64,000 nt of DNA from an uncultured virus (IMG/VR IMGVR_UViG_3300026479_000007) (taxonomy: Duplodnaviria > Heunggongvirae > Uroviricota > Caudoviricetes), in IMG/VR virus record IMGVR_UViG_3300026479_000007, positions 62,001 through 126,000 of that record; one strand, 5' to 3'. The notes beneath the pieces were generated by a model. It did no database searches. It worked only from the letters and a program-made list of their open reading frames with translations, and had not been told where the DNA came from. Both the position numbers and the translations under genes were made by a program. This document shows positions 12,557 through 40,131 of this stretch, in pieces (the first letter of the stretch is position 1; each line of letters begins with the position of its first letter).

Positions 12557-13441
12557 CTAATTTAATCCTCTTAAAAAATCTTCTTTAAAGTTTTTATACA
12601 TATTTCTTATTCTAGTTAAAGAATAAGTTATTTCTTTTGTTTGTAAATCTGTTCTTTCCTTAATTAAATGATACAATAAATTTTTATTGTAAATATTAAT
12701 TACTTCATGTCTATTAAATATAAAAATTATAGCCTCCATTACCTTTTTGTCATTTGGTAAAATTTTAGGATTTATTAATTCTTCTTCTAATTTTTTTATT
12801 GTCTCTCTAAAAACTACATTATTAATCTTTTCAGACTCTAAATCCATTTTCTTTTCTTCACTATCTTCTCCTAAATTTACTTCAGCTGATGAATTTTCTA
12901 TACTTATGTTACTTTGTGTATTTTTATAAGAGATTTTCTTTTCACCCATTAAATAATGCTTAGCAATAGTACCGAAAAAAGCAAAGGCTCTCGCACCTTT
13001 TGAGGGGTCATACCTATCCATTTTTGTTATTAAAAAAGACATACAATCCTCTTGTAACTCTCTTATTTCTATATCAGAACGAAAAAGTTTATAGGTAAAT
13101 ATAATGTTTTCAACTAATTTTTTTAAAGATTTATAAATATCTTCTCTAAAAATTTTTTCTTTTTTGATATTATCTTTCTCTTTTATAAAATTAGCTATAG
13201 CTCTTTCTTGTTCTACACTCCAATATACAGAGTTTTTTTCATACTTTTCTTCGACTTCTTCTTCATTGACAATTCTAGAATATTCTTCTCTAAGGAATTC
13301 AATTGTTAATTCTTTTTTATCGTCATTTTCTTGTTCAAATTCTGGATTGTATTTTGTAATATTTTTATGTAAATACAAAAATTCTTCTCCTATTGATTCA
13401 AACTTTAATTCACTTAAAGATTTTAAATTTTGCCCTGGCAT
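12557..13441 (-). CDS. gp55: Late transcription sigma factor, T4 gp55-like
   Basis: LKKLVENII...ELQEDCMSFLITKMDRYDPSKGARAFAFFGTIAKHYL matches sigma region 2 of gp55-type factors. Confidence 0.75.
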   Translation of the reverse strand: MPGQNLKSLSELKFESIGEEFLYLHKNITKYNPEFEQENDDKKELTIEFLREEYSRIVNEEEVEEKYEKNSVYWSVEQERAIANFIKEKDNIKKEKIFREDIYKSLKKLVENIIFTYKLFRSDIEIRELQEDCMSFLITKMDRYDPSKGARAFAFFGTIAKHYLMGEKKISYKNTQSNISIENSSAEVNLGEDSEEKKMDLESEKINNVVFRETIKKLEEELINPKILPNDKKVMEAIIFIFNRHEVINIYNKNLLYHLIKERTDLQTKEITYSLTRIRNMYKNFKEDFLRGLN

Positions 13442-13531
13442 TTTTCATTTTTTTTATTTTTTAGGACATTTACTTTTTTATACGTAAATGATTTGTACAA
13501 TTTTTACGTCTCATGTTTTGTTTGAAAATTT

Positions 13532-13560
13532 AAAGGCAACCTTTTTAAGAGGTTGCCTTT
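13532..13560 (-). terminator. Intrinsic terminator hairpin
   Basis: AAAGGCAACC-N9-GGTTGCCTTT immediately after the GT2-like gene stop. Confidence 0.65.
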
Positions 13561-13568
13561 TATTTTTA

Positions 13569-14519
13569 TTAGGCGGTTGTTTCTTCGTATTCTATTTCTC
13601 TATCTTCAGACATAAAGTATTCACTTTTAGCTTGTTCCATCCAAAAGCCAATCTCTTTAGCAGTCAAACCTCCATTTTCCTTAGATATTGTAGTTATATT
13701 TGAAGGGATTTTTGAAGAGAATCTATCAAAAGTTGAGCTATTAACATCCATTCTCATTTGATAACCATATCTTGGAATAGTATAAGTTTTTAAATCTTCA
13801 TAAATCATTCTTAAGAAAAATTCATATGAAGAAGCGATACTCATATTTTCCTTAAAAGGATAATATTTACCTTCTCTTTCTTCACTGTATTCTTTAATAT
13901 CTTCAACTTTCAACATACAACCTGTTGGTGATAAGCAATTCCAAGACATTAATAATTGTAAGTCAGCTTGCCCAGAAACTTCAACTTTACCTTCAAGCCA
14001 AGTAGCTTCATTTAAATGTCCAGTCATATTTCCAGCTGAAACTTGTCTTACAATTGGGAAAAATACAGATACGTCTTCTTTTTCAGTAGAGAATCTATCA
14101 AAATTATAGACCCAACTTTCTTCAACAACATCATCTTTATCAATTACAGAAAACCACTTATATCCATTTTCGTTAGCAATATTAAAAGCATCGTTAAAAA
14201 CAGAGTTAAAACTAGTTGATGTAGTTGTCTGAATAGCAAAGTTCAATGTTTTTTCTGAAGTTAAAGTTTTTGTTAAAGGATTTCCTTTATCATCTGTTTC
14301 AAAAGCTCTTTTATAAGGTTTGTTAGCTATTTCAGAAATTTTTTCTAAAGTATCTTTTTCTAAATTTTCAGAAACTAAAATCAAAACATCCGTAGGATTT
14401 GTTTGTTCTGCTAAATTATATAAAGATTCACTTAAAGTTTCTTCTTCAATTTTATTAATTGGTAATACAACTAATAAATTTTTATTATTTAAGGTTTCTA
14501 AATTCTTCAATTCTTTCAT
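13569..14519 (-). CDS. Glycosyltransferase family 2-like (GT-A fold)
   Basis: VVLPI...LAEQT, FSVIDKDDVV (DxDD), YEFFLRM. Confidence 0.65.
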   Translation of the reverse strand: MKELKNLETLNNKNLLVVLPINKIEEETLSESLYNLAEQTNPTDVLILVSENLEKDTLEKISEIANKPYKRAFETDDKGNPLTKTLTSEKTLNFAIQTTTSTSFNSVFNDAFNIANENGYKWFSVIDKDDVVEESWVYNFDRFSTEKEDVSVFFPIVRQVSAGNMTGHLNEATWLEGKVEVSGQADLQLLMSWNCLSPTGCMLKVEDIKEYSEEREGKYYPFKENMSIASSYEFFLRMIYEDLKTYTIPRYGYQMRMDVNSSTFDRFSSKIPSNITTISKENGGLTAKEIGFWMEQAKSEYFMSEDREIEYEETTA

Positions 14520-15693
14520 TTTTAATAGTGTTATAAATATTTAATACAGATTCTACTTCTTTTTCTCTTGTATACTCTGAAATTGTTCTTTCGTATTCTT
14601 TTTGAATTTCTTCTGAATCTAAAACTCCAGAAAAATATCTATCCAAAGCCATACCAATCAATTCAGCCAATTGGAAAACATCTCCGTTAACAGCCCAAAA
14701 TCCATTTTTTTCATTCACATATTCTTTACTTCCAAAAGGAGTCCAACCAACAACGTGAGTACCGCTAGCCATAGCTTCTAAAGGTAATGTACCAAATCCA
14801 GCAACTTCATCAGTATATAATGCGATAGCAGAATTTTTTAACTGTTGTGCAAATTGTTCTTTAGTTAAACCTTGAAGAGGAGCGAAACGAATCCATCTAT
14901 AATGTGGATAAAATTCATAAAATGTTCTAATAACAGTATTAGTTTTCATTTGAGACTCTGGCCCTCTACCAGGCATATAGGAAATCATTGGAGCTTTATC
15001 AGAAATTTTTTCTGGGACATTAAACAATTTTCTATCAATACCTTGTTTATAATTTTTAATATTTAAACCTGGCATAATAGTATTTAAATATTCTGTAATA
15101 CCATCTGAAACAGAAATTACATCTTTAATTCCAAAGTGTTGCCATTTTTGACCAACCTTCATACCAGATAAAACATAATACCAACTTTGAGCCATAACAA
15201 CTCTTCTACAAGGTAATTGAGAAGTGTTTTCCATAATATTAGGAAATCCTTCAGGTATAATTAAGATGTCTTCTGGATTCATTTTTAATGATTCTACTGT
15301 TTCAGTCGTTCCATCAGTATAAGTAAGAACTCCTTCAGCTAAACATCTAACATCAATTTCTTCTTTTAAATCACCTAACCAAGTTGGGTTAAATTTATCA
15401 AAAATAATTACTGGGTCTTTAGCACCTTTTAATCTAGCTTTTTGAGTAGCTTCTAATGATGCTTTATTATTTTGTTGTGGTTCATAAATGATTGCCACAC
15501 TTTTTCCAGCATCTTTTAATATTTTTGCGTGTTCGAATAAAACAGAGATACCTCCACTAGGAGTGTTCATAGCAGGACAGTATATATATACTGTATTTTC
15601 TTCTTTTTCTATTTTAGAAATAAGACTTGAAATTGCTTTTTCTCTTTGTTTTAACATTTCTTCTTCTGAAATTTGTTGAGAAACTGTTTCCAT
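14485..15693 (-). CDS. Glycosyltransferase family 4-like (GT-B fold)
   Basis: PSGG N-terminal motif, IIPE, AGFGTLPLEAMASGTHVV. Confidence 0.8.
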   Translation of the reverse strand: METVSQQISEEEMLKQREKAISSLISKIEKEENTVYIYCPAMNTPSGGISVLFEHAKILKDAGKSVAIIYEPQQNNKASLEATQKARLKGAKDPVIIFDKFNPTWLGDLKEEIDVRCLAEGVLTYTDGTTETVESLKMNPEDILIIPEGFPNIMENTSQLPCRRVVMAQSWYYVLSGMKVGQKWQHFGIKDVISVSDGITEYLNTIMPGLNIKNYKQGIDRKLFNVPEKISDKAPMISYMPGRGPESQMKTNTVIRTFYEFYPHYRWIRFAPLQGLTKEQFAQQLKNSAIALYTDEVAGFGTLPLEAMASGTHVVGWTPFGSKEYVNEKNGFWAVNGDVFQLAELIGMALDRYFSGVLDSEEIQKEYERTISEYTREKEVESVLNIYNTIKNERIEEFRNLK

Positions 15694-15760
15694 ATTATTA
15701 ATTAATTTTTTATTTATAAATGTAATATAGTACTTAAATCATAAAAGTAAACTTTAAACA

Positions 15761-15790
15761 AAAAAAAAGCCTCAAATAATTGAGACTTTT
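15761..15790 (-). terminator. Intrinsic terminator
   Basis: Minus strand AAAAGTCTCAATTATTTGAGGCTTTTTTTT, a hairpin plus U-tract. Confidence 0.65.
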
Positions 15791-15810
15791 CTTAAATTCA
15801 ATTTAAATAC

Positions 15811-16485
15811 TTATTCAAATAAATTTTTTATAAATTTTTCATTTTTTATATCATTTATAGAATCAAATGAATAATCTGATTGAGAATAAGAATTATACAT
15901 ATGATTGATTTTTATTGAAATCTTATCATTAGGTTTAGACTCAAAAACTTCAGGAGAATCACTAATAGCAACATCAGCAAATTCCCAAACATCTTTATAA
16001 TCTTCAATAAATTTTACATTTTTTACCTTACAAGCATTTTTAGCTAAGAAATGATAAGTCGAAATAATAGAAGCATCTTTACACTTTGCAAACAATACTA
16101 CATCAAACATTTTTGATACTTCTCCAAAAATTTGTAAAAAATTTACTGAATCCATAGATTTTGGAAAGCACTGAGAAGAGCCAAAAATTTGAAATGAAAA
16201 ATCATTATACATAAATTTCTCTAAATCCTCTCTATTTTCAAAAAAATAATGATTTAATAAATCAAAAGTATCTAATGGTAAATTTATTTTTTCATCAATC
16301 TGTCTTTGTATCTCTAAAATATCTTCTTCAGTTTCTTCTGGAGATTCTACATAATTAAAATTGTCATCCATCTGTACAAGAGAATCATTTTTTATAAAAG
16401 TTCTTCTGTACCAATTGTCAAATTGAGTGAAAACATCTCTTATTGTCCCATCTATTCCTATTGCTAATACTTTTTTATTTTTCAT
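15811..16485 (-). CDS. HAD-superfamily 5'(3')-nucleotidase-like protein, degenerate motif I
   Basis: IGIDGTIRD motif I; ISDSP motif IV; KINHMYN C-terminal motif. Confidence 0.6.
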   Translation of the reverse strand: MKNKKVLAIGIDGTIRDVFTQFDNWYRRTFIKNDSLVQMDDNFNYVESPEETEEDILEIQRQIDEKINLPLDTFDLLNHYFFENREDLEKFMYNDFSFQIFGSSQCFPKSMDSVNFLQIFGEVSKMFDVVLFAKCKDASIISTYHFLAKNACKVKNVKFIEDYKDVWEFADVAISDSPEVFESKPNDKISIKINHMYNSYSQSDYSFDSINDIKNEKFIKNLFE

Positions 16486-16490
16486 ATTTT

Positions 16491-16991
16491 TTATTTTGTT
16501 ATATTAATATTTTCTACTTCATCTTCATAATAAAAAGAAGATTCTTCTTTCATTATTAAATTAAAACCATATAGTTCATAATCACTTTGAACCTCTTGAT
16601 TTTTAACTGAACCTTTTCCTTTTGGAACTATAGCATACTTTTCTAAATCAATTTCTTCACTATAAATCTCTCCAGTCAAACCATTACAAAATCCAGGTTG
16701 CTTAAAAGAAACAAGTCCAACCAAATATCCTTTATCATCTATTCTTAAATTCCTAACAATACCACAACTTAAAGAATCTAAAATAAAATCATTGTAAATA
16801 TCTCTAAAAACTCCCTCTTCTTCATTGTCTATAGCATATTCCAATTCATAACCATCTATAACTCCATTCTCTTCACTTTGTTTTTGATTTTGAATCCAAT
16901 CTTCAACAACCTCTTTTGTGTAAGCTCTAAAGTTTTTATTTTTATTATCTACTTTTAATATCTTATATTCTTTTTCTATTACTTTTGACAT
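16491..16991 (-). CDS. Prohead protease paralogue lacking catalytic residues
   Basis: Colinear similarity to 34784..35428: NKNFRAY/NRNGRVY, YELEY/GELDH, IVPKGKGSVKN/ISSRGVGSVKN, VQSDYELYGFNLI/VQEDFELIGFDFV. Confidence 0.7.
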   Translation of the reverse strand: MSKVIEKEYKILKVDNKNKNFRAYTKEVVEDWIQNQKQSEENGVIDGYELEYAIDNEEEGVFRDIYNDFILDSLSCGIVRNLRIDDKGYLVGLVSFKQPGFCNGLTGEIYSEEIDLEKYAIVPKGKGSVKNQEVQSDYELYGFNLIMKEESSFYYEDEVENINITK

Positions 16992-17012
16992 ATTATATTT
17001 TTTTTATTTAAA

Positions 17013-17020
17013 CAAATATA
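17013..17020 (-). promoter_or_regulatory. Bacteroidota-type -7 promoter element TATATTTG
   Basis: Exact TAnnTTTG 21 nt upstream of the ATG at 16991. Confidence 0.5.
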
Positions 17021-17048
17021 TATTTTTTTTTATATAAATGCTAATAAA

Positions 17049-18197
17049 TTAAAACAATTCTCTATTGTTACTTAAATTTACAAATTCTTCTTCAATAATT
17101 TCTTCTTTTCCTTCAAAATTTACTAGAAAAACATCTTCCTCTTCACCAAATTCTACATCACCCCACTCTTCATTAATATCTTCACCAAAAGGTCTGATTG
17201 GTCTCAAAGCTGCTTGCATTTTTCTAGGTTCTTTATGAAAATCTACTATACATTTAAACCTTTCTAATATTGTTTGTTTTTTGTCAAATATTCTATAATA
17301 CATTTCATCATTTAAAATAAAAAAGTTTTCTTTAGATACTTCTAATTGCATAATTATATTTTCAAAACTTTTTATCATATTTTCTTTCATCTCTTTAAGA
17401 GTAGAAATTACCTCATCATAATTTAAGTTTTTATAGTCATTTTCGAAAAAGTTATTTTGATTGTAAGTCTTTAAAGGTATAGTATTAAATTCTTTATCAT
17501 CCAATTCTTCTCCAAAAAGTGAAACTTTTTTTTCAAAAGGTATTTTACTTGTAATTGAAAAATCAAAATCATATTGATTTATATCATATAATTTATTTAT
17601 TTTATTTTGTTTTAACTTTTCTTCAAAAACTTCACTTTTTTCAAAAAACTCATTTATATACTCTAAAGTTTTTAAAGTAATATTTGAATTTGCAAACTCA
17701 TAATGTTGTTCTAAATTTCCATTTTTACCTATTTGTAAATGACATATTGTTTTTGAGTTTTTATCTTTTAAAGATAATATTGCTATATCTTTTCTTCTAA
17801 CTTCAGAACTTAAATCATTTAAGCAGTTTCTCATAAACTTTGCCTCAAAATATAATTCTTTAGGAGTTAAGTTAATAATGTAACTTTTATCTGGGAAGGT
17901 GTATAAAATTCTCTTCTTTTCACTTTCATCACTCTCTATAAATTGAGAAGCGTGAAAAAAAGCTTGTTTTAAACTTTTTAAATCCTCTTTAAGTTTTATA
18001 TTTTTATTAAAAAGCTTAACAACTAAACGTATATTTTTCTTAACTTCTTCAGAATTAATAGAAAAATTTTCTTTTTCTATTTTATCTACAAACCAAACTA
18101 TGTGGTTTTGAGGAACTTTTAAACTCTTACAAAATTTTATAGTTTCTATATTTCTACCATTTGATAATAAAAACTTTTCTCTACTTGTTAATTTCAT
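17049..18197 (-). CDS. PcfJ-like domain protein
   Basis: ELYFEAKFMRNCL...ILSLKDK...LQI...Q...N motif. Confidence 0.55.
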   Translation of the reverse strand: MKLTSREKFLLSNGRNIETIKFCKSLKVPQNHIVWFVDKIEKENFSINSEEVKKNIRLVVKLFNKNIKLKEDLKSLKQAFFHASQFIESDESEKKRILYTFPDKSYIINLTPKELYFEAKFMRNCLNDLSSEVRRKDIAILSLKDKNSKTICHLQIGKNGNLEQHYEFANSNITLKTLEYINEFFEKSEVFEEKLKQNKINKLYDINQYDFDFSITSKIPFEKKVSLFGEELDDKEFNTIPLKTYNQNNFFENDYKNLNYDEVISTLKEMKENMIKSFENIIMQLEVSKENFFILNDEMYYRIFDKKQTILERFKCIVDFHKEPRKMQAALRPIRPFGEDINEEWGDVEFGEEEDVFLVNFEGKEEIIEEEFVNLSNNRELF

Positions 18198-18206
18198 TTT
18201 TATATA

Positions 18207-19820
18207 TTATTTAAATGTTGTATAATTTATATCTCCTTTTTTATTCTTAAAAAAATTAATATGTTGTGCTTTTCCGTTTTTATGAATTATAACATGAGAT
18301 TGTAACCAAGAACTTGGACCATTATTATAACCTACTCTTAATTTTGTTGAAGTACCAACTGCAAGAGCACCATCCTTTCTTTGTGGACTATGGTAATGAC
18401 CCACAACAATTTTTGTATTTAATTTTCTATATTGTAATAAACTACCTCTTGAACCATTCGAACCAACATCTCCATGTTGACCTAATTCCCAATCTAAAAC
18501 TTTATATGAATCTCTTCTTCCTAAAGTTTTGAAATTTGGAAATTTATTATTTATAATGGAAGGTATAATACCTTTTACATTTTCAGGGTGTTCTGCATAT
18601 TGTTTCAACAAAATAGAAGAGTATTCCATATATAAAGGGGAATTTTTGGGGGTTGGTTGACGTTTCCAATCTTCATTTTTAACCCATCTATCTAAAAAGT
18701 CATCGTGATTACTTCTTACAATAACTACATTTTCATACTTTTCAAAAGTTTCTAAACCTTCTAAAAGTTCATCAACTTCTTTTTTAAGATTATTCTTATC
18801 ATTTATCTCTTTTGAGTATTGAATAAATGGGTCTTTCATATCATGATGTGAAATTGAATATCCATCAAAAACATCATGCAAAACTACATGTTTAGGTTTG
18901 ATTTTATTTAACATCTTATGAGTAACATCTAACACTTCTTGTTCATGATGTCCCCAGTGTAAATCACCTAAAATACAAGCTTCTATATCTTTAATATCTT
19001 TAATGATTGTTTTTGAATTCTTAACATCATAAGTAACCTCTTTGTACAAATCTAAAAAATCACCATTATCTTCAGCGGAAACTTGTCTTATATAAAATGT
19101 TTCATCATCTTCAATTTCAACTACTACAAAACCTATTACGTGATGAAACTCACCTTTCTTTCCAGCTTTAGAATCAGTATAATTTTTTTCAGTACAAGCT
19201 CCAGTGGTAACCATCATTTTTGACTTTTCACCTTCTATTACTGGTATCATTTCCATTTGTAATTTAGGAGAGCCAAATATACAAGAGTTAACACCAGAAA
19301 TAGATTGCATACCAGTCATTGGATTAACTGCAGTAGGATGAATCTTAATGTCAGACATAATTGAAACATACTTATGTATATCGTGTCTATTGGCATCAAG
19401 ATATGGTTGAACCATTTCATCCCATCTTTCATCTTCTTCTTGTTCATCAGACCATACAGATGTTGGATTTTTATAACGTCCAGCAATAACGTGTATATCT
19501 GCGTCTATGTGTTTAGAATATTTAATTAAATTTTTGAAAAACCTTTCATTTACTGGAGTATTATTTTGTGCCCAAGTTACAATAAATTTCTTTTTCTTTT
19601 TATTGAAAATTCTTTTTTGAGCTTTAACATACTCTTCTGGGATACTTTCTTTTTTTTCGCTTAAGTTCAACTTTTCTGAAGCCCACTTTCTAACTGTTCT
19701 TTCACTTTTACCAGTTAGTTTCATAAGCTTTTCCATTCTTTTGTCCCAACTTAACTCTTTGTCTTTATAAATTTTAGTGAAGCGTTTTATGTCGCTTTTT
19801 GTCATATCTTTAAAATTCAT
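18207..19820 (-). CDS. Calcineurin-like metallophosphoesterase with N-terminal HTH
   Basis: GDLHWG, HDVFDG, SNHDD, HGD and GHYH motifs in order; N-terminal GKSERTVRKW helix-turn-helix. Confidence 0.75.
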   Translation of the reverse strand: MNFKDMTKSDIKRFTKIYKDKELSWDKRMEKLMKLTGKSERTVRKWASEKLNLSEKKESIPEEYVKAQKRIFNKKKKKFIVTWAQNNTPVNERFFKNLIKYSKHIDADIHVIAGRYKNPTSVWSDEQEEDERWDEMVQPYLDANRHDIHKYVSIMSDIKIHPTAVNPMTGMQSISGVNSCIFGSPKLQMEMIPVIEGEKSKMMVTTGACTEKNYTDSKAGKKGEFHHVIGFVVVEIEDDETFYIRQVSAEDNGDFLDLYKEVTYDVKNSKTIIKDIKDIEACILGDLHWGHHEQEVLDVTHKMLNKIKPKHVVLHDVFDGYSISHHDMKDPFIQYSKEINDKNNLKKEVDELLEGLETFEKYENVVIVRSNHDDFLDRWVKNEDWKRQPTPKNSPLYMEYSSILLKQYAEHPENVKGIIPSIINNKFPNFKTLGRRDSYKVLDWELGQHGDVGSNGSRGSLLQYRKLNTKIVVGHYHSPQRKDGALAVGTSTKLRVGYNNGPSSWLQSHVIIHKNGKAQHINFFKNKKGDINYTTFK

Positions 19821-19849
19821 TGAACTACTGTTATTAATTATTTGAGTAG

Positions 19850-19881
19850 CAAATTAAAGACTTTTTTTTATAAAAAACAAA
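19850..19881 (-). promoter_or_regulatory. Bacteroidota-type promoter (TTTG-N20-TTAATTTG)
   Basis: -33/-7-like elements upstream of ATG 19820; the -7 element is imperfect. Confidence 0.4.
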
Positions 19882-19884
19882 TTT

Positions 19885-20103
19885 TTATTTATTTCTTTTA
19901 ATTCCAAAGTTAGATTTATACCATAATCTCTCATGAATATAATAAAGAATCATTTTACTTATAACTTCAACACCTCCAATTGAAAAACCAATCATCCAAT
20001 TATTTGTCAAAAACCAACTAATTATTATAGTATCTATTGTTCCTAATAATCTCCAAGTTATAGTTTTGGCAATATGTCTTTTATGACTTATTTCTAGTTT
20101 CAT
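19885..20103 (-). CDS. DUF2061 membrane protein
   Basis: RHIAKTITWRLLGTIDT...KMILYYIHERLW; start more likely ATG 20103 than 20235 because of overlap with the upstream gene. Confidence 0.8.
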   Translation of the reverse strand: MKLEISHKRHIAKTITWRLLGTIDTIIISWFLTNNWMIGFSIGGVEVISKMILYYIHERLWYKSNFGIKRNK

Positions 20104-20548
20104 ATAAATAATTTTCAACATCTCCCTGGATTGATTCATCAACCATCTCTCTCCAAGAGTTATTACCTTCTTTAATTGATTCCCTAATCTTAGTGGCTGA
20201 AATAAACCCAATCTCTTCTGTTGGTCTGTATTCATTAATCTCGTATCCTACACCTCTACCATAATTAACCGATTCAATATCAGGTATAATCATTACCTTT
20301 ACATCATCACCTTTAGAATTATGATACTTTTCAATCATACTTACAGTTTGTTCTGTTGTAAAAGGATTCTTTTCATCTGGTTCAATATCTCTAACCATAA
20401 TAAGTACTGGAACACCCTCATCCAACTTTTGTTGAATTAAATTGATATGCCCATAATGGTATGGTTGATATCTACCAACGAATATCGCATATTTCTTATC
20501 TTTGTTTTTGGTGGGTTCACCTCCATGATTTTTCTTTTCCCAACTCAT
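20081..20548 (-). CDS. HIGH-family (cytidylyltransferase-like) nucleotidyltransferase; candidate minimal sulfate adenylyltransferase
   Basis: GRYQPYHYGH, NPFT and ISATKIR motifs; start overlaps the cysC stop. Confidence 0.7.
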   Translation of the reverse strand: MSWEKKNHGGEPTKNKDKKYAIFVGRYQPYHYGHINLIQQKLDEGVPVLIMVRDIEPDEKNPFTTEQTVSMIEKYHNSKGDDVKVMIIPDIESVNYGRGVGYEINEYRPTEEIGFISATKIRESIKEGNNSWREMVDESIQGDVENYLYETRNKS

Positions 20549-21120
20549 AAATTTTTATAAATAAATTCTACACTATCTTCTATACTCATCTTGTCTGTTC
20601 TAATAAACATATTAGGGTTTTTAGGTTCTTCATAAGGTGAATCTATACCTGTAAACATAGGTATTTCTCCAGCTCTAGCCTTTTTATACAACCCTTTTGG
20701 GTCACGCTCTTCACAAGTTTCTAATGGTGTTTTAATATAAATTTCAACAAAATTATCTTTGCCTATTATCTCTTTAGCCATTTGTCTTTCATTTTCAAAT
20801 GGCGAAATGAAAGCTGTGATAACTATAGCACCTAAATCAATCATTAAATTTGCAACTTCAGCTATTCTTCTAATATTTTCCTTTCTATCATCATCAGAAA
20901 AACTCAAATCTTTATTAAGACCCATTCTAACATTGTCACCATCTAAAATATAAGCTAATTTACCTTCATTATGCAATTTAGATGCTAACTCATTTGCTAT
21001 AGTTGATTTACCAGAACCAGATAATCCAGTTAACCAAATAACTTGAGGTTTTTGTTTTAATATTTCTATTCTTTCTTTTTGAGTTATTAAAAAATTTTGA
21101 GAAATTATATTTTTATTCAT
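20545..21120 (-). CDS. cysC: Adenylyl-sulfate (APS) kinase
   Basis: WLTGLSGSGKST, LDGDNVR, ENIRRIAEVA, RDPKGLYKKARAGEI..FTGIDSPYE. Confidence 0.97.
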   Translation of the reverse strand: MNKNIISQNFLITQKERIEILKQKPQVIWLTGLSGSGKSTIANELASKLHNEGKLAYILDGDNVRMGLNKDLSFSDDDRKENIRRIAEVANLMIDLGAIVITAFISPFENERQMAKEIIGKDNFVEIYIKTPLETCEERDPKGLYKKARAGEIPMFTGIDSPYEEPKNPNMFIRTDKMSIEDSVEFIYKNL

Positions 21121-21129
21121 TGTTTTATA

Positions 21130-21753
21130 TTATTTTTTTTCATATATATCATCAACATTTATTTTTTTTATCAACTGATATCCATTATTTGATAATATTT
21201 TTTGAATTAAAGTATTGTTATAATTATTTTCAACAATAATTAATTTTATTTTCACTTTGTCGAAATCTATACTTTTTATTATATCAATTTCACCACCTTC
21301 AGTATCTATAGTGCAAAAATCAATCTCATTAATATTATGCTTATTTAATAAATTATTTAACAATTCTGTTTTAACTTTTATAATTTCAATTCCTTTATTT
21401 TTAGGATTTTTTATTTCTTGCTCAATTCTTTTTTTATGTTTTTCATCATAAGAGTCAACTATTCCACTTAAACCTTTGCCCCACCCTGATATATCCATAA
21501 AATCAACTTCATCAACCTTATTAGATAGTGCGTAATTTTCACATATACATGTTCTATTATTCTCAAGTAATTTAAAGCGTTTAGGGCTGGGTTCTATACA
21601 CATCCCATACCATCCAATATCTTCAAAAAATTTTGTATTACTTTTATCTATTCCATCATCTGCACCTATCTCTAAGAATACACCATTTTTTTTATTTTTA
21701 AAATATTTTTCATATAACCATTTATCTTGACCATATTGACTATAAAACTTCAT
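21130..21753 (-). CDS. FkbM family methyltransferase
   Basis: YSQYGQD, FLEIGADDG, CIEP and IDTEGGE motifs. Confidence 0.9.
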   Translation of the reverse strand: MKFYSQYGQDKWLYEKYFKNKKNGVFLEIGADDGIDKSNTKFFEDIGWYGMCIEPSPKRFKLLENNRTCICENYALSNKVDEVDFMDISGWGKGLSGIVDSYDEKHKKRIEQEIKNPKNKGIEIIKVKTELLNNLLNKHNINEIDFCTIDTEGGEIDIIKSIDFDKVKIKLIIVENNYNNTLIQKILSNNGYQLIKKINVDDIYEKK

Positions 21754-21767
21754 ATTATTATTATTAT

Positions 21768-22616
21768 TTAAATTATTATTTTTTTATTTTCAATTTCTTT
21801 TATTTTTTTATATATTACTTCCCATATATTATATTCATTGAGTATTAACATCCTTGCTTCTTTTAGTGAATTTTTTTCAGTTTTTGTTAAAGGTTTTTTA
21901 ATAATTTCATTTATATCATCTAAAGGATTACTACTATTAATATCAATTAATCTATAACTATCTTTTGGAAAGTAATTTTCTATATTTGGACACCCCCAAT
22001 AAATTGGCATACACCAAGACAAATAAGCATCAGCTAACTTTTCAGTCCAATAATTTTTTTGTTGTGAATTTTCCATAACAATAGTATATTCATAATCAAT
22101 TAAACCTTCAAATTTACAATTTCCATCATAATTTAAAATGCCCTTATAATTATCGCCATAATATTTTTCATTGTGACCCTTTCCATATAATTCAATATTA
22201 TTTTTTGTTTTAAATAAATTTTTAATATATTCATTTCTGTGAGTATGTTTTGAAGAGGCAACACAACTAATCTTTTTACTTTTATTTGGATATTTTAATT
22301 CTGTTAATTGTTTATAAGATTTATTCAACCAATAAGTGACACCAGTATTTTTTAAATTATAATCTACTATATGTTTATATTTTAAATTTCTATAAGGTCT
22401 TATATAATTTGGTTCTCTTTTTATAAAAATTGTTTTTTCAATTGGAGTATTTGTTGCAAAAACTTCTAAGACAATAAAATAATCAGCTTCATTCATATTT
22501 ATTGTTCCAACCAAATCTTTCCAAACACCATCACTATTTGGAGTTTGTTTGGAATATCTTTCTAAAAGTTTTCGATTGTCTTCATTCCAATTGTTTATAA
22601 AAAATATTTTTTTCAT
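21768..22616 (-). CDS. Glycosyltransferase family 10-like (fucosyltransferase)
   Basis: YEYTIVMENS...YWTEKLADAY...PIYWG motif. Confidence 0.85.
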   Translation of the reverse strand: MKKIFFINNWNEDNRKLLERYSKQTPNSDGVWKDLVGTINMNEADYFIVLEVFATNTPIEKTIFIKREPNYIRPYRNLKYKHIVDYNLKNTGVTYWLNKSYKQLTELKYPNKSKKISCVASSKHTHRNEYIKNLFKTKNNIELYGKGHNEKYYGDNYKGILNYDGNCKFEGLIDYEYTIVMENSQQKNYWTEKLADAYLSWCMPIYWGCPNIENYFPKDSYRLIDINSSNPLDDINEIIKKPLTKTEKNSLKEARMLILNEYNIWEVIYKKIKEIENKKIII

Positions 22617-23215
22617 TAAAATTTAAATTTAAATAATTCTATATCTTTAGCATATATCTCAGAAACAATATCTTTAGTTTCATTATCATAATAATCTTTA
22701 TATTTTTTATAACTTTTTTTACTTACATTTTTAACACTTAAGTTAGGAATTATTTTTTTAAATTTTAAATCTAACTCAATATCTTCTAATTTAAAAACGT
22801 AATCCAATAACATCAAACCTTCATTATTATAAATATACTTATTTTGAGATTCCCAACCTTGATGTTTTAAAAAGTTATTATCTTCTTTAAAAGCTTGTAA
22901 AGTTTCTTTAAAGTTAAGTTTTATTAAATTTTTATAATCTGGGTGAGCTCCATATATAGAATTACCACTAACTGAATGCCAATGACTTTCAGGCATTCTA
23001 GCGTATTCATAATTAGACACTACTCTATCCCAAGGATTTCTAATAACACAAAACTTTATATAATTTTCCCATTGATTTGGAAAGTTACTTTTATAAAAAG
23101 AAGGCAAATGATGACCTTTAAAAGAAAAATTCATCCCTTCTGAGTCAGTTATTGATGTCCCAGCATTCTTTGGGATATGTATAAAAATTAATTTATTTTT
23201 ATGTGATATTGGCAT
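22616..23215 (-). CDS. Sulfotransferase family 2 protein
   Basis: FIHIPKNAGTS (5'-PSB loop), IRNPWDRVVS (3'-PB), C-terminal YAKDIELFKF. Confidence 0.9.
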   Translation of the reverse strand: MPISHKNKLIFIHIPKNAGTSITDSEGMNFSFKGHHLPSFYKSNFPNQWENYIKFCVIRNPWDRVVSNYEYARMPESHWHSVSGNSIYGAHPDYKNLIKLNFKETLQAFKEDNNFLKHQGWESQNKYIYNNEGLMLLDYVFKLEDIELDLKFKKIIPNLSVKNVSKKSYKKYKDYYDNETKDIVSEIYAKDIELFKFKF

Positions 23216-23217
23216 AA

Positions 23218-23808
23218 TTATCTTAAATGTTTATTATTAGTTATAATATTTTCTATATCTGAAAATCCTGGCTTTTGCCATGCTATTGTTGGATTGCATA
23301 TAAAAGAATTAATGTTAGGTAATAATTCAGATAATAACACATCAACTTTAAATTCTCTTTCTTTAAATTTGTTTAACATTTTTTCAACAATCTCTTTTCT
23401 AATAATAAAAGCGTGTGTACAATATACTTTTTTAGCTAAATATAAAAAATCATTATATTTAATTTTATCTCCAACATTCCAACCACCTAAAAATAATAAA
23501 TCCCAATTTTCTGGTAAAGTTTTAGTTATTTTTTCTAAATCATTAATAAAATTTTCACCAACTTCAACATCATCTTCAAAAATTATAAAAAAATCTTCAT
23601 CTAACTCTTTTACTTTTTCCAACAATCTTATATGCGAATCTCTACATCCTCTCCAACCTCTTTCAAACATTGGTTTATTTGAGAAACTTTCTTTGCCATC
23701 AGTTGCTGAAAACCTTTCCCATTTTAAAGGTAATTTTATTTCAGATATTCTATCTACTCTTCTATCTAAGTTTATAACAAAAGTTTTTGTTTTTTCTAAA
23801 TTTATCAT
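23218..23808 (-). CDS. Glycosyltransferase family 25
   Basis: VINLDRRVDR, FSATDG, GCRDSH, IFEDD, WDLLFLG, CTHAFII. Confidence 0.9.
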   Translation of the reverse strand: MINLEKTKTFVINLDRRVDRISEIKLPLKWERFSATDGKESFSNKPMFERGWRGCRDSHIRLLEKVKELDEDFFIIFEDDVEVGENFINDLEKITKTLPENWDLLFLGGWNVGDKIKYNDFLYLAKKVYCTHAFIIRKEIVEKMLNKFKEREFKVDVLLSELLPNINSFICNPTIAWQKPGFSDIENIITNNKHLR

Positions 23809-23809
23809 T

Positions 23810-24478
23810 TTATTTTTCCCATTTTTTAATTATTTCACAATGTATAGGTGTTTCTTTAGAGTGTAAATCATCATATATTGTATATTTATTTTTCATTTTT
23901 GGATTGTATATAAAAAACTCTTTAGCTTTTCTTGCAATACTTATCATTTTTACATTTTGTTTTTTGCAAATATCCGATAAATATATATCTGCTTTATTTG
24001 GTGTTTTAAAATCTTTTAATTTTAAATCTAAAACTTCTAAATCTATTCTACAACAACCAGTACCTATAACATCTACTTCAGTATCTTTGTCTAATGCAGA
24101 ATTTGAATGCAAAACTATTCTGTCTTTATAATAATTTTTACAAGGATATTTTATTATTGAAGCATGAATACCAATTACTGGGTTGTTGTTTTTTAATAAA
24201 TGCTCAATATAATTTTTTTTATATATCAAATCATCATCACACGCAAAATAAAAATGACCTTTATATTCATCTACTTTGTAAAATTTAGCAGCATCTCCTA
24301 AGGAGTTATCCAATAAATAACTTTCTATTTTTTCTTTTTTTAAGAAACTAGGCACTTCTTTATAATTGTTTAATCCTACTATAATTTTATCTACTTGATT
24401 ATATAGAGAATTTACAGTATCTCTAAGGCATTCTTCTCTTTCAGGCAAACTTGCAATTCCTACTACTTTTAATTTCAT
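23810..24478 (-). CDS. Glycosyltransferase family 2-like
   Basis: IASLPER, SLYNQVD, GDAAKF, CDDDLIY, GTG. Confidence 0.75.
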   Translation of the reverse strand: MKLKVVGIASLPEREECLRDTVNSLYNQVDKIIVGLNNYKEVPSFLKKEKIESYLLDNSLGDAAKFYKVDEYKGHFYFACDDDLIYKKNYIEHLLKNNNPVIGIHASIIKYPCKNYYKDRIVLHSNSALDKDTEVDVIGTGCCRIDLEVLDLKLKDFKTPNKADIYLSDICKKQNVKMISIARKAKEFFIYNPKMKNKYTIYDDLHSKETPIHCEIIKKWEK

Positions 24479-25188
24479 ATTATTTCAAAATTTTCATTCA
24501 TTTCTGGTTCAATATATTCAAAATCTTTAGCTAATTTTTTAGTGATACTTTTTCTATATTCACTACCATAACCAGTTTCTCTTTTTTGAGTTAAGGATTC
24601 AGAATGAATTCTTCTTAAATAAAGAGGTTTTCTGATTATATATCTCTTAAATTTTTTAGTTCTCATTTCAAAATCACTATCAGCACCCACTTTCCAAGCT
24701 TTATAACCACCTATTTCTTTCCATACGCTCCATTTGACAGCAGCTATACCTTCCATTTCTTTTGGACTTAAACTATTCTTACCATCTTCAGTAAAATTTT
24801 GACAATGATACAAAACTAAGTCATTTTCTTTTAAGTGAGGCTCTACAGTTTCTAACAAATTATTTATTTGAATATCATCAGCACCAACAGTTATAGTTTT
24901 GTCAAAATTTACATTATTAAGTAAAGAGTTTAAAGTTACAAAAGTACCTTTATTCTCTTTGAAATTTATAACTTTTAAGTTTTTGTATTTATTTTTTATT
25001 TTCTTTACTTCATTTAATGTATCTAAACAACCATCTATACCTAATAAAATTTCATAATTATCTTTTTTTTGAAATAATGTTTGATTTTGAATTGAATCTA
25101 AACAACTTTCAATATATTTTTGTGCCTGATAAGCTGGTACTATTACACTCCAACCTTCTTGAATATTTCTTTCTGAAAATTTTTTCAT
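24475..25188 (-). CDS. Glycosyltransferase family 2
   Basis: SVIVPAY, CLDSIQNQT, IDGC, GADD, IGGY..GADSDF..R. Confidence 0.9.
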   Translation of the reverse strand: MKKFSERNIQEGWSVIVPAYQAQKYIESCLDSIQNQTLFQKKDNYEILLGIDGCLDTLNEVKKIKNKYKNLKVINFKENKGTFVTLNSLLNNVNFDKTITVGADDIQINNLLETVEPHLKENDLVLYHCQNFTEDGKNSLSPKEMEGIAAVKWSVWKEIGGYKAWKVGADSDFEMRTKKFKRYIIRKPLYLRRIHSESLTQKRETGYGSEYRKSITKKLAKDFEYIEPEMNENFEII

Positions 25189-25478
25189 TTCTTTTCGATT
25201 AAAAGTTCATTTTTGTTTAAAAAAGGAAATTCTTTCAACATTTCCTCTACATTTTTTTTAAGATTTTCTATTTTTTTAATATATTTTTCTCTTTCTTCTT
25301 CTGGTAATACAATAGGATTTAAACAGTCAATATATGTTTCTTTGTTTCTAATAGGAATAAAAATACTATGATATTCTTCATTATATGTAAAAGTTTGTTT
25401 TATATTATTAATATATTCTGAAACTTCTACATTATCTAAATTTCCTATATTTATATAGTGAACTATTATTGGTTTCAT
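25185..25478 (-). CDS. Hypothetical protein
   Basis: 97 aa ORF translationally coupled in the operon. Confidence 0.65.
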   Translation of the reverse strand: MKPIIVHYINIGNLDNVEVSEYINNIKQTFTYNEEYHSIFIPIRNKETYIDCLNPIVLPEEEREKYIKKIENLKKNVEEMLKEFPFLNKNELLIEKK

Positions 25479-25482
25479 ATCA

Positions 25483-26265
25483 TTAAATTAATTCAAATTT
25501 GTTTAAAGGAAAATCTAACTCTTGATAACATCCTTCAATTTGATTAAAATCCATATTTTTATAGTCAACTTCTAAGTCATCCAATATAAAAGAAGTGTTT
25601 AATTTTTCAATACTTTCAGTTTCTTTTGCTAAACCACTAACTAAAACACTCTCTTTGAAAGAAGACATATTTTTTCTGGGGAAATTATCAAATATTTGTA
25701 ATCCGCTCTCATAATCTTCCAAAGAACTAAAAGAAACTTTTTTTGTCAACTTCTTTATTTCTTTTGTTCTAAAGATATGTCCATTTAAAGATAAAGGATA
25801 ACCAAAATCCAAATAATGAACTTGCCAATCCCACATAATGTACTTATCATCTTCATAGTTAGGTCTTATAATATTATCAGCATCCATCGTATGACACTTT
25901 ATAGTATTTTTACCTAACCTCATAGAGAAACAAAATGTATCTTTATCATCTCTCAATTGAGTAACCAAATCTTCTTCCTTAACTTTACTAAAAAGAATAT
26001 TGTCATCTGTAAAGAAACAAGTATAATCACTTTTTGACTTTTCTAATAAGTCTAAAATTTTTTCTTTAAAATCTTCTACCCCTTCTACCCAATTAATTTT
26101 AGGATATTTCTTGATTAACTTTTCATAACCTAAATTATAACTATAGTTTGTAGAAGTATATACAACACTCAAATCAAAAATATCATTTGAATTTACATCA
26201 ATAGATGATAATAAAAGGTTTAATTGTACTGGATTGTTTTGTGAAATTATTATACCATTAATCAT
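25483..26265 (-). CDS. GT-A fold-like protein (putative glycosyltransferase)
   Basis: QLNLLLSSI, FFTDDNIL, FSMRLG, YPLSLNGHIF; lies within the GT cluster. Confidence 0.5.
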   Translation of the reverse strand: MINGIIISQNNPVQLNLLLSSIDVNSNDIFDLSVVYTSTNYSYNLGYEKLIKKYPKINWVEGVEDFKEKILDLLEKSKSDYTCFFTDDNILFSKVKEEDLVTQLRDDKDTFCFSMRLGKNTIKCHTMDADNIIRPNYEDDKYIMWDWQVHYLDFGYPLSLNGHIFRTKEIKKLTKKVSFSSLEDYESGLQIFDNFPRKNMSSFKESVLVSGLAKETESIEKLNTSFILDDLEVDYKNMDFNQIEGCYQELDFPLNKFELI

Positions 26266-27127
26266 TTTCTTCTAATTTTTCTGTTTTATAACTTTCTAAT
26301 TTTTCGAAACTTTTCTTTCTATTAACATCAATATAGGTAGTTAACTGCAATTCTCTTTGTAGTCTATTATCGGATATTGGATTATCTACATTGTGTATAT
26401 ACATTTCTTCTTTATTAAAGAACACATGCTCCTTACCAGCCATTTCAAACATGGGTAAAAACATACAAACATCATATTTAACTTTATACCAATTGCCTGA
26501 TTTATCTTTCATACATTCAAAATTTTCATCTTGTTCTGCAATTTTACTATAAAGACCAGCTTTAAAAGTTCTTATGTGAGGTATTATAAAAGGTATTTTT
26601 CTTAAATCCTCAAATTCTTCTTTTGTATACTCTTTATGATTATATGTTTGACTATTGTTAGAACTTTTTGAATTCCCATACATTAACCAACACTCTTCAT
26701 TTTTGTTATAAAAATCATTAATTTGAGATAAAACTCTCTTATTAACAAGCCAATCATCTCCATTTACAATTACAACAATATCTTCTGAGTCTGTAGCAAA
26801 CCTCATTATTCCGTTATGCAAATTAGGAAGAGCAGTAATTCTTTCCCCAGACCTCCAAGCTAAAATATTGCTACAATTAGTTTTGTCTAATAAGTGATGT
26901 TTACTTTCAACTATAGGTTCTCCATTATCATCCATCAAAAGATTTCCTTCACTATCACCTTTATATTTTACAGCAGGTATTTTAGAAAAAGAATCATCTG
27001 TAGAACAATCATCTATAAAAAGAATTTCATAGTTATCATAATCTTGAGTTAGCAAAGAATTTATACACCTATCTAGAAACTTTCCTGGATTATAAAATGG
27101 GACTATGACTTTAATTTTATTTTTCAT
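26258..27127 (-). CDS. Glycosyltransferase family 2
   Basis: VIVPFYN, SLLTQDY, IDDCSTD, NGDDWL. Confidence 0.9.
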   Translation of the reverse strand: MKNKIKVIVPFYNPGKFLDRCINSLLTQDYDNYEILFIDDCSTDDSFSKIPAVKYKGDSEGNLLMDDNGEPIVESKHHLLDKTNCSNILAWRSGERITALPNLHNGIMRFATDSEDIVVIVNGDDWLVNKRVLSQINDFYNKNEECWLMYGNSKSSNNSQTYNHKEYTKEEFEDLRKIPFIIPHIRTFKAGLYSKIAEQDENFECMKDKSGNWYKVKYDVCMFLPMFEMAGKEHVFFNKEEMYIHNVDNPISDNRLQRELQLTTYIDVNRKKSFEKLESYKTEKLEEND

Positions 27128-34743: not shown

Positions 34744-34750
34744 TATTTAT
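34744..34750 (+). promoter_or_regulatory. Candidate late promoter TATTTAT
   Basis: Upstream of the prohead protease gene. Confidence 0.5.
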
Positions 34751-34783
34751 ATATGTTAATTATTATATAATAAATAAAAAAAA

Positions 34784-35428
34784 ATGAGTTTAGATAAATA
34801 TGTAATATCAGAGTTTTATACTTTTGAAGTAGACTCTACCTTAATAAAGGAAGCTGAAGAAAAAAATCAACCAATCTTTATGACTGGTATTCTTCAAAAG
34901 GCTAATACTGAAAATAGAAATGGAAGAGTTTATCCATTAGATATTTTAAAAAGAGAAGCTAAAAAATATGAGGAAGCAGTAAAAGAAAATAGAGCTACTG
35001 GAGAATTAGACCATCCAGATAGTGCTGTAGTTAGTTTGTCTAATGTTTCTCATATGGTTACTGAAATGTGGTGGGAAGGTGAAACTTTAATGGGTAAAGT
35101 AAAATTACTTGATACTCCTTCTGGAAACATTTTAAAAGGATTGTTGAAAAGTGGAGTTATGCTAGGTATATCTTCAAGAGGTGTTGGTTCTGTAAAAAAT
35201 AAAAATGGACTCGATGTTGTTCAAGAAGATTTTGAACTTATAGGTTTCGACTTTGTTTCTTCTCCTTCTACTCCTGGTGCATACTTATTTAAAGAGTCAA
35301 AAAGCTGGGGGATGACTAAATTAGATGGTAATAGTTCAAAAATATTAAAACCAAATGAATTGAATACTTTTAATGATTCAATGAAAGAATTATTCAAAGT
35401 TTCTAAAAAAGATTTTTGGAAAAAATAA
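34784..35428 (+). CDS. gp21: Prohead core protease, T4 gp21-like
   Basis: NRNGRVY, GELDHP, GISSRGVGS, DFVSSPSTPGA. Confidence 0.95.
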   Translation: MSLDKYVISEFYTFEVDSTLIKEAEEKNQPIFMTGILQKANTENRNGRVYPLDILKREAKKYEEAVKENRATGELDHPDSAVVSLSNVSHMVTEMWWEGETLMGKVKLLDTPSGNILKGLLKSGVMLGISSRGVGSVKNKNGLDVVQEDFELIGFDFVSSPSTPGAYLFKESKSWGMTKLDGNSSKILKPNELNTFNDSMKELFKVSKKDFWKK

Positions 35429-38655: not shown

Positions 38656-40131
38656 ATGAAAGTTTTAATTTGCAAAATAACACAAAAAGAATTTAATGAT
38701 ATAGAAAATAAAAGTGGTTGTATTACTAATCATTTAAAAACTCTATCTATCAAAGTTGAATCTTCTTATAAAAGAAGGAAATATTTAAAAGAAAAAGGAG
38801 AATATTGGCATTTTAAATATTTTGATTTAATAGAAAAGGAAGAAAAAAATAAATTCAAATGTAAATATTGTAATTGGAACACATTAGATATAGAAAATTC
38901 AAGTGGACAATATACTTTACATTTAAAGAAAGTGCACAACAAAAACATCGAAGAATATTTAAAAGATTTCCCAGAAGAATCTATAAAATTTAAAACTTTT
39001 ATAAAAAATAAAGAAAAAAATTTAGAAACTATAAAAGAAGGTAATTTTGTTACTTGTAAAATATGTAATAAAAAAGTAAGATATTTAACAAATACACATT
39101 TAAAAAAACACAATTTAAACCTTGAAACATATAAATTAAGATTTCCAAAAGAACAATATGCAAGTAGTTCTTTTAAAGATAAAGCAGGTGAAATTTTAAA
39201 AAAAGCTTCTCAAAAAATAGAAAAAACTTTTGTTTCAAAACCAGAATTAGAATTAAAATATTTTTTAGAAAATGACTTAAATTTAAAAATATTAAAAAAC
39301 AATAGAAAAATTTTTAATGGTATGGAAATAGATATAATAATACCAGACAAAAAAATTTGTATAGAATTCAATGGAAATCTTTATCATTCAGAAAATTATG
39401 GCAAAAAAAATAGAAATTTTCATTTAAGTAAATCTGAAATATGTTTTAAAAAAGGCTATAAATTAATTCATATTTTTGAAGATGAATGGTTTTTGAAAAA
39501 TAATATTGTAAAAGAGAAAATAAAAAATATCTTAAAAACTAAAAATAAGCCATCGATTTTTGCTAGAAAATGTATTATAAAAGAGATAACATCAAAAGAA
39601 AAAGGGATTTTTTTAGAAAAAAATCATATACAAGGCAATGATAAAAGTGAAATAAAACTAGGAGCTTTATATGAAGGTAAATTAGTTTCTGTTATTACTT
39701 TATCTAACAAAAGAAATATGGTTTCAAAAATAAAAGATGAAAATTATGAAATAAAAAGATTTGCTTCAGATATTAATTATAATGTAGTTGGAATATTTTC
39801 TAAATTTATTTATTTTATTTCAAATAATTATGAATTTAATAATCTTTTTACTTTTTTAGACTTAAGATGGAATTTTGATAAAGAAAATAATGTTTATGCT
39901 AAAAATGATTTCAAATTGAAAAAAGTAATAAATCCAGATTACACATATTATAATTCTAAAGTTTCAAAATATAATAGATTTCATAAATTTTTATTTGGAA
40001 AAAATAAAATATCAAAAAAATTCCCAGAAATATATGATAAAAATAAAACAGAATGGCAAATGATGCAAGAATTAGGTTATGATAGAATATGGGATTGTGG
40101 AAAAGCTAAATTTGAGTTTAAAAAATATTAA
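38656..40131 (+). CDS. Hef-like free-standing endonuclease (C2H2 zinc fingers, PD-(D/E)xK domain, C-terminal GNAT-like domain)
   Basis: CKYC..H..H and CKIC..HLKKH fingers; EIDIIIPDKKICIEFNGNLYHS; NHIQG...EIKRFAS...IWDCG. Confidence 0.75.
   Translation: MKVLICKITQKEFNDIENKSGCITNHLKTLSIKVESSYKRRKYLKEKGEYWHFKYFDLIEKEEKNKFKCKYCNWNTLDIENSSGQYTLHLKKVHNKNIEEYLKDFPEESIKFKTFIKNKEKNLETIKEGNFVTCKICNKKVRYLTNTHLKKHNLNLETYKLRFPKEQYASSSFKDKAGEILKKASQKIEKTFVSKPELELKYFLENDLNLKILKNNRKIFNGMEIDIIIPDKKICIEFNGNLYHSENYGKKNRNFHLSKSEICFKKGYKLIHIFEDEWFLKNNIVKEKIKNILKTKNKPSIFARKCIIKEITSKEKGIFLEKNHIQGNDKSEIKLGALYEGKLVSVITLSNKRNMVSKIKDENYEIKRFASDINYNVVGIFSKFIYFISNNYEFNNLFTFLDLRWNFDKENNVYAKNDFKLKKVINPDYTYYNSKVSKYNRFHKFLFGKNKISKKFPEIYDKNKTEWQMMQELGYDRIWDCGKAKFEFKKY

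Follow-up and report, generated by a model that had tools for sequence, protein, structure and literature searches.

Background

The prohead protease of bacteriophage T4, gp21, has a catalytic triad composed of His, Ser and Asp (PMC5694885). Head-maturation proteases are dangerous products for the phage that encodes them, and a 2026 preprint reports that CBASS senses the protease activity of T4 gp21 (PMC12991175). Truncated paralogues of such proteases have been known in giant phages since 2017, when Ali et al. described gp117 of SPN3US and its homologues, gp206 of 201phi2-1 and gp143 of PhiPA3, as a 'cryptic protease' of 136-145 aa (PMC5694885). These proteins were presented as paralogues of the phiKZ-type prohead proteases that had diverged extremely and lost C-terminal sequence, an arrangement termed 'unprecedented' at the time and a possible remnant, and in gp117 the aligned Ser and Asp were reported as retained, S126 and D144 (PMC5694885). 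Terms for gp117 and cryptic paralogues returned nothing from PMC7411985. Searches of the literature on phage prohead-protease paralogues and pseudoproteases, with the papers listed judged by title or abstract, gave no description of the protein family considered here.

The window analysed, a stretch of 64,000 nucleotides with a G+C content of 27%, belongs to a large uncultured phage, identical copies of which occur on a 232.5 kb contig (88% complete, CheckV) and a 240.9 kb contig. T4-like structural genes for the major head protein, sheath, tube and baseplate wedge are encoded in this phage. Its canonical S77 prohead protease, the active paralogue of 214 aa encoded at 34784..35428 (+), contains the residues His77, Ser130 and Asp156 and is matched by PF03420 (Peptidase_S77, E 1.8e-33), phrog_207 (E 1.4e-57) and the T4 gp21 structure 5JBL (E 1.3e-19), the crystal construct of which carries Ala at both the Ser and the His positions relative to native T4 gp21. 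An acidic 478-aa ORF, a scaffold candidate without a family match, follows 3' of the protease gene, and is followed in turn by the major capsid gene; an HNH/homing-endonuclease-like gene (38656-40131 (+); phrog_3339, E 6.6e-77) lies directly 3' of the latter. On the other strand, an intact ORF at 16491..16991 (-) codes for a protein of 166 aa, here labelled PP166, with a pI of 4.5, no histidine residues and a non-catalytic version of the S77 fold, as set out below.

Relationship of PP166 to the prohead protease

No family was assigned to PP166 in Pfam, PHROGs or NCBIfam. There was no PF03420 match at E <= 1, the Pfam gathering cut-off of 27 bits was not reached, and tblastn against 50,697 phage records returned no match. 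BLASTP against the phage's own protease aligned just the C-terminal 40 residues (38% identity, E 5e-5). Alignments were constructed for 32 members of the PP166 family (A1), 28 proteases (A2) and 48 short relatives (A4). The A1 profile gave a chance match only in the PDB, where gp21 was not found, and scored 2.6% against the single T4 gp21 sequence. Compared with the protease alignment by hhalign, A1 reached 93.9% (E 1.5e-7, 115 columns) and A4 99.3% (E 2.8e-20, 137 columns), which bears out the colinear similarity between PP166 and the protease described in the initial annotation. T4 gp21 (5JBL) was the sole significant match of the A4 profile in the PDB (E 1.9e-5), and the comparison of A4 with the single T4 gp21 sequence by hhalign gave 87.5%.

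A profile search of 1.84 billion representative proteins recovered 49 matches at E <= 1e-3, nearly all of them 117-190 aa in length. Among the remote short relatives, 38 were scanned against Pfam; PF03420 was matched at E <= 0.1 by 13 and at more than 27 bits by three. By tblastn, two of the short relatives matched annotated prohead proteases, P0191 in 499 phage records and P0204 in 11. When run over the phage's own record, the PP166 profile identified PP166 and the protease (E 5e-5), with no third place.

The fold predicted for PP166 by AlphaFold2 (pLDDT 82, pTM 0.78) points in the same direction. In VIA-align the best solved match is T4 gp21 (5jbl_B; 124 residues, Z 10.8, rmsd 2.6 A), and herpesvirus proteases come next with Z of about 8. 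The best PDB match by Foldseek was 5jbl_C (E 3e-3, TM 0.53), with none at E <= 1e-3, while 70 matches at E <= 1e-3 were obtained in the BFVD library of viral models. The named entries among these are mostly prohead proteases or scaffold-proteases, and short uncharacterised proteins of giant phages are also present; at the top stands a protein of 142 aa listed as 'prohead core scaffold protein'. Taken together, the profile-profile matches, the predicted fold and the residue evidence presented below support the proposal that PP166 is a true homologue and paralogue of the phage's own S77 (T4 gp21-type) prohead protease, with a predicted gp21/herpesvirus-protease fold.

Loss of the catalytic triad and architecture of PP166

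The position of the catalytic Ser130 of the protease is occupied in PP166 by Val122 (codon at 16626..16628 (-)), AIVPKGKGS pairing with GISSRGVGS in both the MAFFT and hhalign alignments, and that of the catalytic Asp156 by Asn144 (codon at 16560..16562 (-)), YGFNLI pairing with IGFDFV. These two pairings agree in every alignment and, when their conservation was checked, Val122 and Asn144 were each present in all 32 family members. The position of the catalytic His differs by alignment, falling on Tyr52 in the initial annotation, Ile54 in the comparison of A4 with A2, Asn56 with MAFFT and Glu59 in the comparison of A1 with A2. None of the four places a His there, nor does any column of the PP166 family near this region hold one, and since PP166 has no histidine anywhere the loss of the catalytic His stands despite the uncertain alignment. 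The claim that all three catalytic residues had been replaced is thus upheld for Ser to Val, for Asp to Asn and for the missing His, while the specific pairing of the His with Tyr52, found in one of the four alignments, is insecure. In a joint alignment of the 48 short relatives with seven proteases, the Ser is kept in 1/48, the Asp in 4/48 and the His in 3/48 of the relatives and the full triad in none, whereas all seven proteases keep all three residues. The absence of the triad is confirmed at the level of the aligned residues, and PP166 would be CATALYTICALLY dead.

Other parts of the protease are well represented among the short relatives. The equivalent of Arg48 in the motif N-x-N-x-R-x-Y is conserved in 46 of the 48, and the glycines of the G-x-G motif in 43 (Gly133) and 39 (Gly135). 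The motif N-x-N-x-R-x-Y and the stretch G-x-G-S-V-K ... VQ-D-[YF]-EL-x-GF around the lost serine are colinear in PP166 and the protease. In the comparison of A4 with A2 the aligned core spans residues 2-157 of PP166 and residues 28-171 of the protease, beyond which PP166 ends nine residues later and the protease runs for 43 more. PP166 is hence without the N-terminal segment of the protease, comprising approximately its first 27 residues, and without its basic C-terminal tail of 43 residues. The region of the lost His appears to have been rebuilt around an acidic insertion (residues ~56-72), where the confidence of the AlphaFold2 model is low (block means 51-72).

Conservation and selection

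Forty-two intact homologues of PP166 were identified (147-179 aa, 44-94% identity) and the family alignment contains 29 invariant columns. The reading frame is intact in all nine viral loci compared, which represent six distinct PP166 sequences. The dN/dS ratio was 0.12-0.50 in the 14 computable pairs out of 15, values that are rough because dS is saturated (1.0-2.8). A metagenome scan for close relatives of PP166 returned an identical copy only (L014), so that no close pairs were available for an unsaturated estimate. PP166 evolves faster than most of its neighbours, with 63-64% identity compared to 80-84% for the A1-like, HAD-like and glycosyltransferase genes, and more slowly than the upstream 382-aa gene (47-48%).

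A decaying duplicate of the protease gene, the reading proposed for SPN3US gp117 (PMC5694885), can be set aside almost entirely for PP166. The number of intact homologues, the invariant columns, the intact frames, the dN/dS ratios well below 1 and the conserved promoter box described below all speak against it, and the sequence comparisons indicate that the gene is under purifying selection and is not decaying.

Genomic context of PP166

The start of the PP166 gene is located 17.8 kb from the protease gene in the window, which bears out the earlier remark that it lies far from the head genes. In three of five related records PP166 occurs together with a single canonical protease, at distances of 18, 30 and 89 kb; the remaining two records, in which they do not co-occur, are fragments of 12% and 27%. 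PP166 is not found in the head module beside the scaffold and major capsid genes and instead has a fixed place in a non-structural gene block. The gene order PP166, 224-aa gene, two glycosyltransferase genes, 294-aa, 119-aa and 863-aa genes is kept in all nine loci, among them one from a phage of 518.8 kb whose genome is complete and terminally repeated. Eight loci contain the upstream 382-aa gene, the ninth being cut, and an A1-like metallophosphoesterase (phrog_1745, E 6.9e-155) is encoded in seven of the nine.

The 224-aa gene (15811..16485 (-)) is situated 5 nt after the PP166 stop codon and is adjacent to PP166 in 9/9 loci. Its product has a predicted HAD/5'(3')-deoxyribonucleotidase-like fold (AlphaFold2 pLDDT 90.5), with 3bwv_B as the top Foldseek match (E 6.4e-7), 76 PDB matches at E <= 1e-3 and NT5C as the Atlas lead. 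At the expected nucleophile position, mapped from the DxDx[TV] motif and the predicted strand, no family member has an Asp (0/30), the residues found there being Ser, Gly, Asn, Thr and Glu. The second Asp is kept in 28/30. The 224-aa protein may accordingly represent a second dead enzyme in the two-gene unit that contains PP166.

Several further genes in the window are of note. The 382-aa neighbour of PP166 (17049-18197 (-)) is PcfJ-like solely by an Atlas lead (0.95), and a second PcfJ-like protein of 223 aa is encoded at 45508-46179 (-) (PF14284, E 4.5e-12). The 294-aa protein (12557-13441 (-)), conserved in 9/9 loci, has weak matches to sigma-70 region 2/ECF proteins (E 9e-4; TIGR02937, E 1.5e-3, below the cut-off) and may be a phage sigma factor. 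A long sugar-modifying block at 13569-27127 (-) includes genes for a GT1, several GT2 and one GT10 fucosyltransferase-like glycosyltransferase, a sulfotransferase, a methyltransferase, a cytidylyltransferase and a kinase.

Promoter motifs and transcription units

A TAnnTTTG box (TATATTTG), a candidate host sigma-A -7 element, is located at 17013..17020 (-), 29 nt before the PP166 ATG. TAnnTTTG is the flavobacterial sigma-A -7 consensus (PMC9723704). It occurs 29-53 nt upstream of the PP166 start codon in all six distinct loci, in intergenic DNA that has otherwise diverged; at the background rate (0.00096 per nt per strand), 60 nt would be expected to contain about 0.056 such boxes. Over the whole window TATATTTG is not enriched (13 found, 10.2 expected), and a generic sigma-70 scan of the window was at chance level (51 found, 47.3 expected). 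The conserved box suggests that PP166 has its own candidate promoter of the host sigma-A type. TAnnTTTG also occurs 30 nt upstream of a class I Glu/Gln-type aminoacyl-tRNA synthetase gene in the window (43205-44809 (-); PF00749, E 8.5e-103).

A different motif, [ACT]TATTTAT, is present no more than 80 nt upstream of 23 of the 62 ORFs, including the protease (for example at 34744-34751), the scaffold candidate and most of the head and tail genes, among them those for sheath, tube and baseplate. TATAAATA/TATTTATA occurs in the window more often than expected, 44 times against 22.9, with none of 100 shuffles reaching 44, and we infer that this is the late motif meant in the initial annotation. 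The TATTTAT motif reads as the reverse complement of the T4 late box, and [ACT]TATTTAT is a candidate late promoter of the phage. It is absent upstream of PP166 in 6/6 loci, a one-mismatch CATTTAT lying further upstream in the window. That PP166 carries a host-type element in place of the late motif is hence borne out in the six loci. The further proposal that it is expressed earlier in infection is consistent with the conserved sigma-A-type -7 box and the missing TATTTAT motif, which point to it indirectly.

A terminator-like hairpin of 14 pairs followed by a T run is located at 15762..15793 (-), between the two-gene unit and the glycosyltransferase genes. Inspection by eye of two of the other loci, L006 and L010, showed a terminator-like hairpin and T run directly 3' of PP166, separating it from the 224-aa gene. 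These hairpins (~10487-10530 in L006 and ~10463-10510 in L010) are GC-rich, and the PP166 homologue looks monocistronic there. In seawater RNA libraries the whole of PP166 is covered by contigs that extend into the 224-aa gene (X1, 15853-16994; X3, 16235-16994), and the glycosyltransferase pair occurs on separate RNA-library contigs (13180-15700). As contigs with uncontrolled DNA carry-over, these data demonstrate that the sequences are present and agree with the predicted units, and do not speak to timing. In three RNA runs a contig follows the window up to ~15861, beyond which its next 255 letters differ; this may reflect a related strain or an assembly join. Coverage of the upstream 382-aa gene (17049-18197) is thin and patchy in four runs, the contigs stopping at 16994 or 16987. 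Contig ends near 16994 are a weak hint of a transcript start, since the reads were cut at a low-complexity run (16998-17041) and no DNA run or silent stretch served as a control. The suggestion that PP166 recruits the neighbouring glycosyltransferases to proheads is disfavoured because the hairpin at 15793-15762 and the separate RNA contigs place them in separate transcription units.

Possible functions of PP166

As the residues for cutting have been lost while the gene is conserved with its own host-type promoter, PP166 probably works by binding rather than cutting, as judged from its sequence. The roles raised in the initial annotation, all of them hypothetical, are regulation of head maturation, interference with competing phages or satellites, a decoy for defences and recruitment of the glycosyltransferases. 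The stretches shared best with the protease lie at N-x-N-x-R-x-Y and along the strand that surrounds the lost serine, and for this reason PP166 may have retained the ability to bind what the protease binds, be it a protease subunit or cleavage-site peptides, without cutting it. Synthesis of PP166 would begin with infection and would not depend on the head genes, and through competition the protein could restrain or buffer the protease outside the prohead, in a role comparable to that of T4 Inh, to which it is unrelated. The reading put forward here, tentatively and with somewhat less than even confidence, is that PP166 binds without cutting and competes for the protease or for what the protease targets. 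Prediction of the complex between PP166 and the protease from A1 and A2 gave no answer (score 0.12, mark 0.32) and counts neither for nor against binding. An early promoter is a poor fit for the regulation of a late enzyme, unless PP166 persists through infection. Also counting against a restrainer are the acidic character of PP166 and the missing basic tail, its neighbours, which are not head genes (the A1-like phosphoesterase, the PcfJ-like lead and the HAD-like gene), the rebuilding of the lost-His region with an acidic insertion, and an evolution faster than that of most neighbours.

Reuse of the protease barrel for binding unrelated to the head, together with the HAD/nucleotidase-like neighbour and for example in nucleotide or host-takeover biology, is unlikely. 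The constant adjacency of the 224-aa gene in 9/9 loci, the RNA-library contig bridging both genes and the neighbourhood of the A1-like phosphoesterase (phrog_1745) and the deoxyribonucleotidase-like fold would fit such a role, which is countered by the terminator-like hairpin between the two genes in L006 and L010 and by the fact that the best-conserved residues of PP166 are those it has in common with the protease. A structural role, in which PP166 is a non-catalytic accessory of the prohead core or scaffold that co-assembles by means of the protease fold, must be rated as distinctly unlikely. T4 gp21 itself is described as a core component before its activation, with pentamers near the vertices (PMC9958956), and both the gp21 fold and the 'prohead core scaffold protein' at the top of the BFVD matches are compatible with this role; PP166, however, is without the C-terminal tail, which in the discussion of SPN3US is presumed to direct such proteases into the prohead (PMC5694885), has a host-type promoter without TATTTAT, resides in a non-structural gene block and is not similar to T4 gp68. 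The low odds also given to a decoy, which would occupy host sensors of the prohead protease or its activity, such as the protease-sensitive activation loops of CBASS CD-NTases, and shield them from cleavage, make it improbable, although the triggering of CBASS by T4 gp21 activity (PMC12991175) renders the idea more plausible than before. A host-type and probably early promoter would be typical of counter-defence genes, the dead site keeps the substrate-side motifs and PP166 evolves faster than its neighbours; on the other side, no link from PP166 to any defence system was found, and since CBASS responded to protease activity and not to protease binding (PMC12991175), a decoy would work only by masking the bait itself.

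It is more doubtful still that PP166 and the HAD-like gene form an early anti-defence cassette of two dead enzymes, in which the pseudo-protease would mask host baits (the CBASS CD-NTase loops) and the nucleophile-less nucleotidase-fold protein would bind nucleotide signals without hydrolysing them; were this the case, the same idea would extend to dead paralogues of the protease elsewhere among giant phages. The prospect that PP166 is a cryptic enzyme using other residues, such as the conserved cysteines Cys76 (30/32 members) and Cys102 (nearly invariant), is very remote, there being no His to pair with a Cys. Furthermore, the Cys76 column is not kept in A4, which has no invariant columns and four nearly invariant ones (M1, N18, R22 and F143).

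The conserved triad-less copy with a host-type promoter suggests that the protease fold is retained in giant phages for a task other than cutting, and a separate origin from the phiKZ-type 'cryptic proteases', which appears to be the case, would mean repeated invention. With PP166 there is a defined protein for testing how the protease is regulated or how immunity senses it.

Comparison with known systems

Two small T4 proteins that modulate or accompany the protease, the gp21 inhibitor Inh and the prohead core protein gp68, are possible functional analogues of PP166. Neither is a relative: hhalign gave 0.8% and 0.1% for Inh and 0.3% and 0.4% for gp68, and gp68 is without a PF03420 match.

With T4 gp21 and the phage's own protease PP166 shares the predicted fold (Z 10.8) and the colinear motifs, and it differs from both in having no triad, N-terminal segment or basic tail and in the acidic insertion at 56-72. 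It further differs from its own protease in its location 17.8 kb from the head genes, in its promoter motif and in going undetected by PF03420. SPN3US gp117 resembles PP166 in being a short, C-terminally truncated and diverged giant-phage protein encoded apart from the phage's own prohead protease, as far as it is described in PMC5694885, and the presence of PP166 (166 aa) and the protease (214 aa) in the same phage record matches this truncated-paralogue arrangement. In contrast, gp117 is reported to keep the Ser and Asp where PP166 keeps none of the triad, and has been read as a possible remnant, whereas PP166 is clearly under selection and has a conserved host-type promoter (PMC5694885 for gp117). 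In hhalign comparisons with the single gp117 sequence A1 scored 0.3% and A4 0.6%, single-sequence comparisons of this kind being insensitive. As A4 finds T4 gp21 (87.5%) but not gp117, the profiles suggest that PP166 represents a lineage separate from gp117 and derived from T4-type S77 proteases.

Among pseudoenzymes, dead paralogues that keep their fold and binding motifs can regulate their active paralogues. By analogy, PP166 would correspond to a regulatory pseudoenzyme, being a dead paralogue that keeps the predicted fold and motifs of the prohead protease and coexists with the live enzyme in the same phage.
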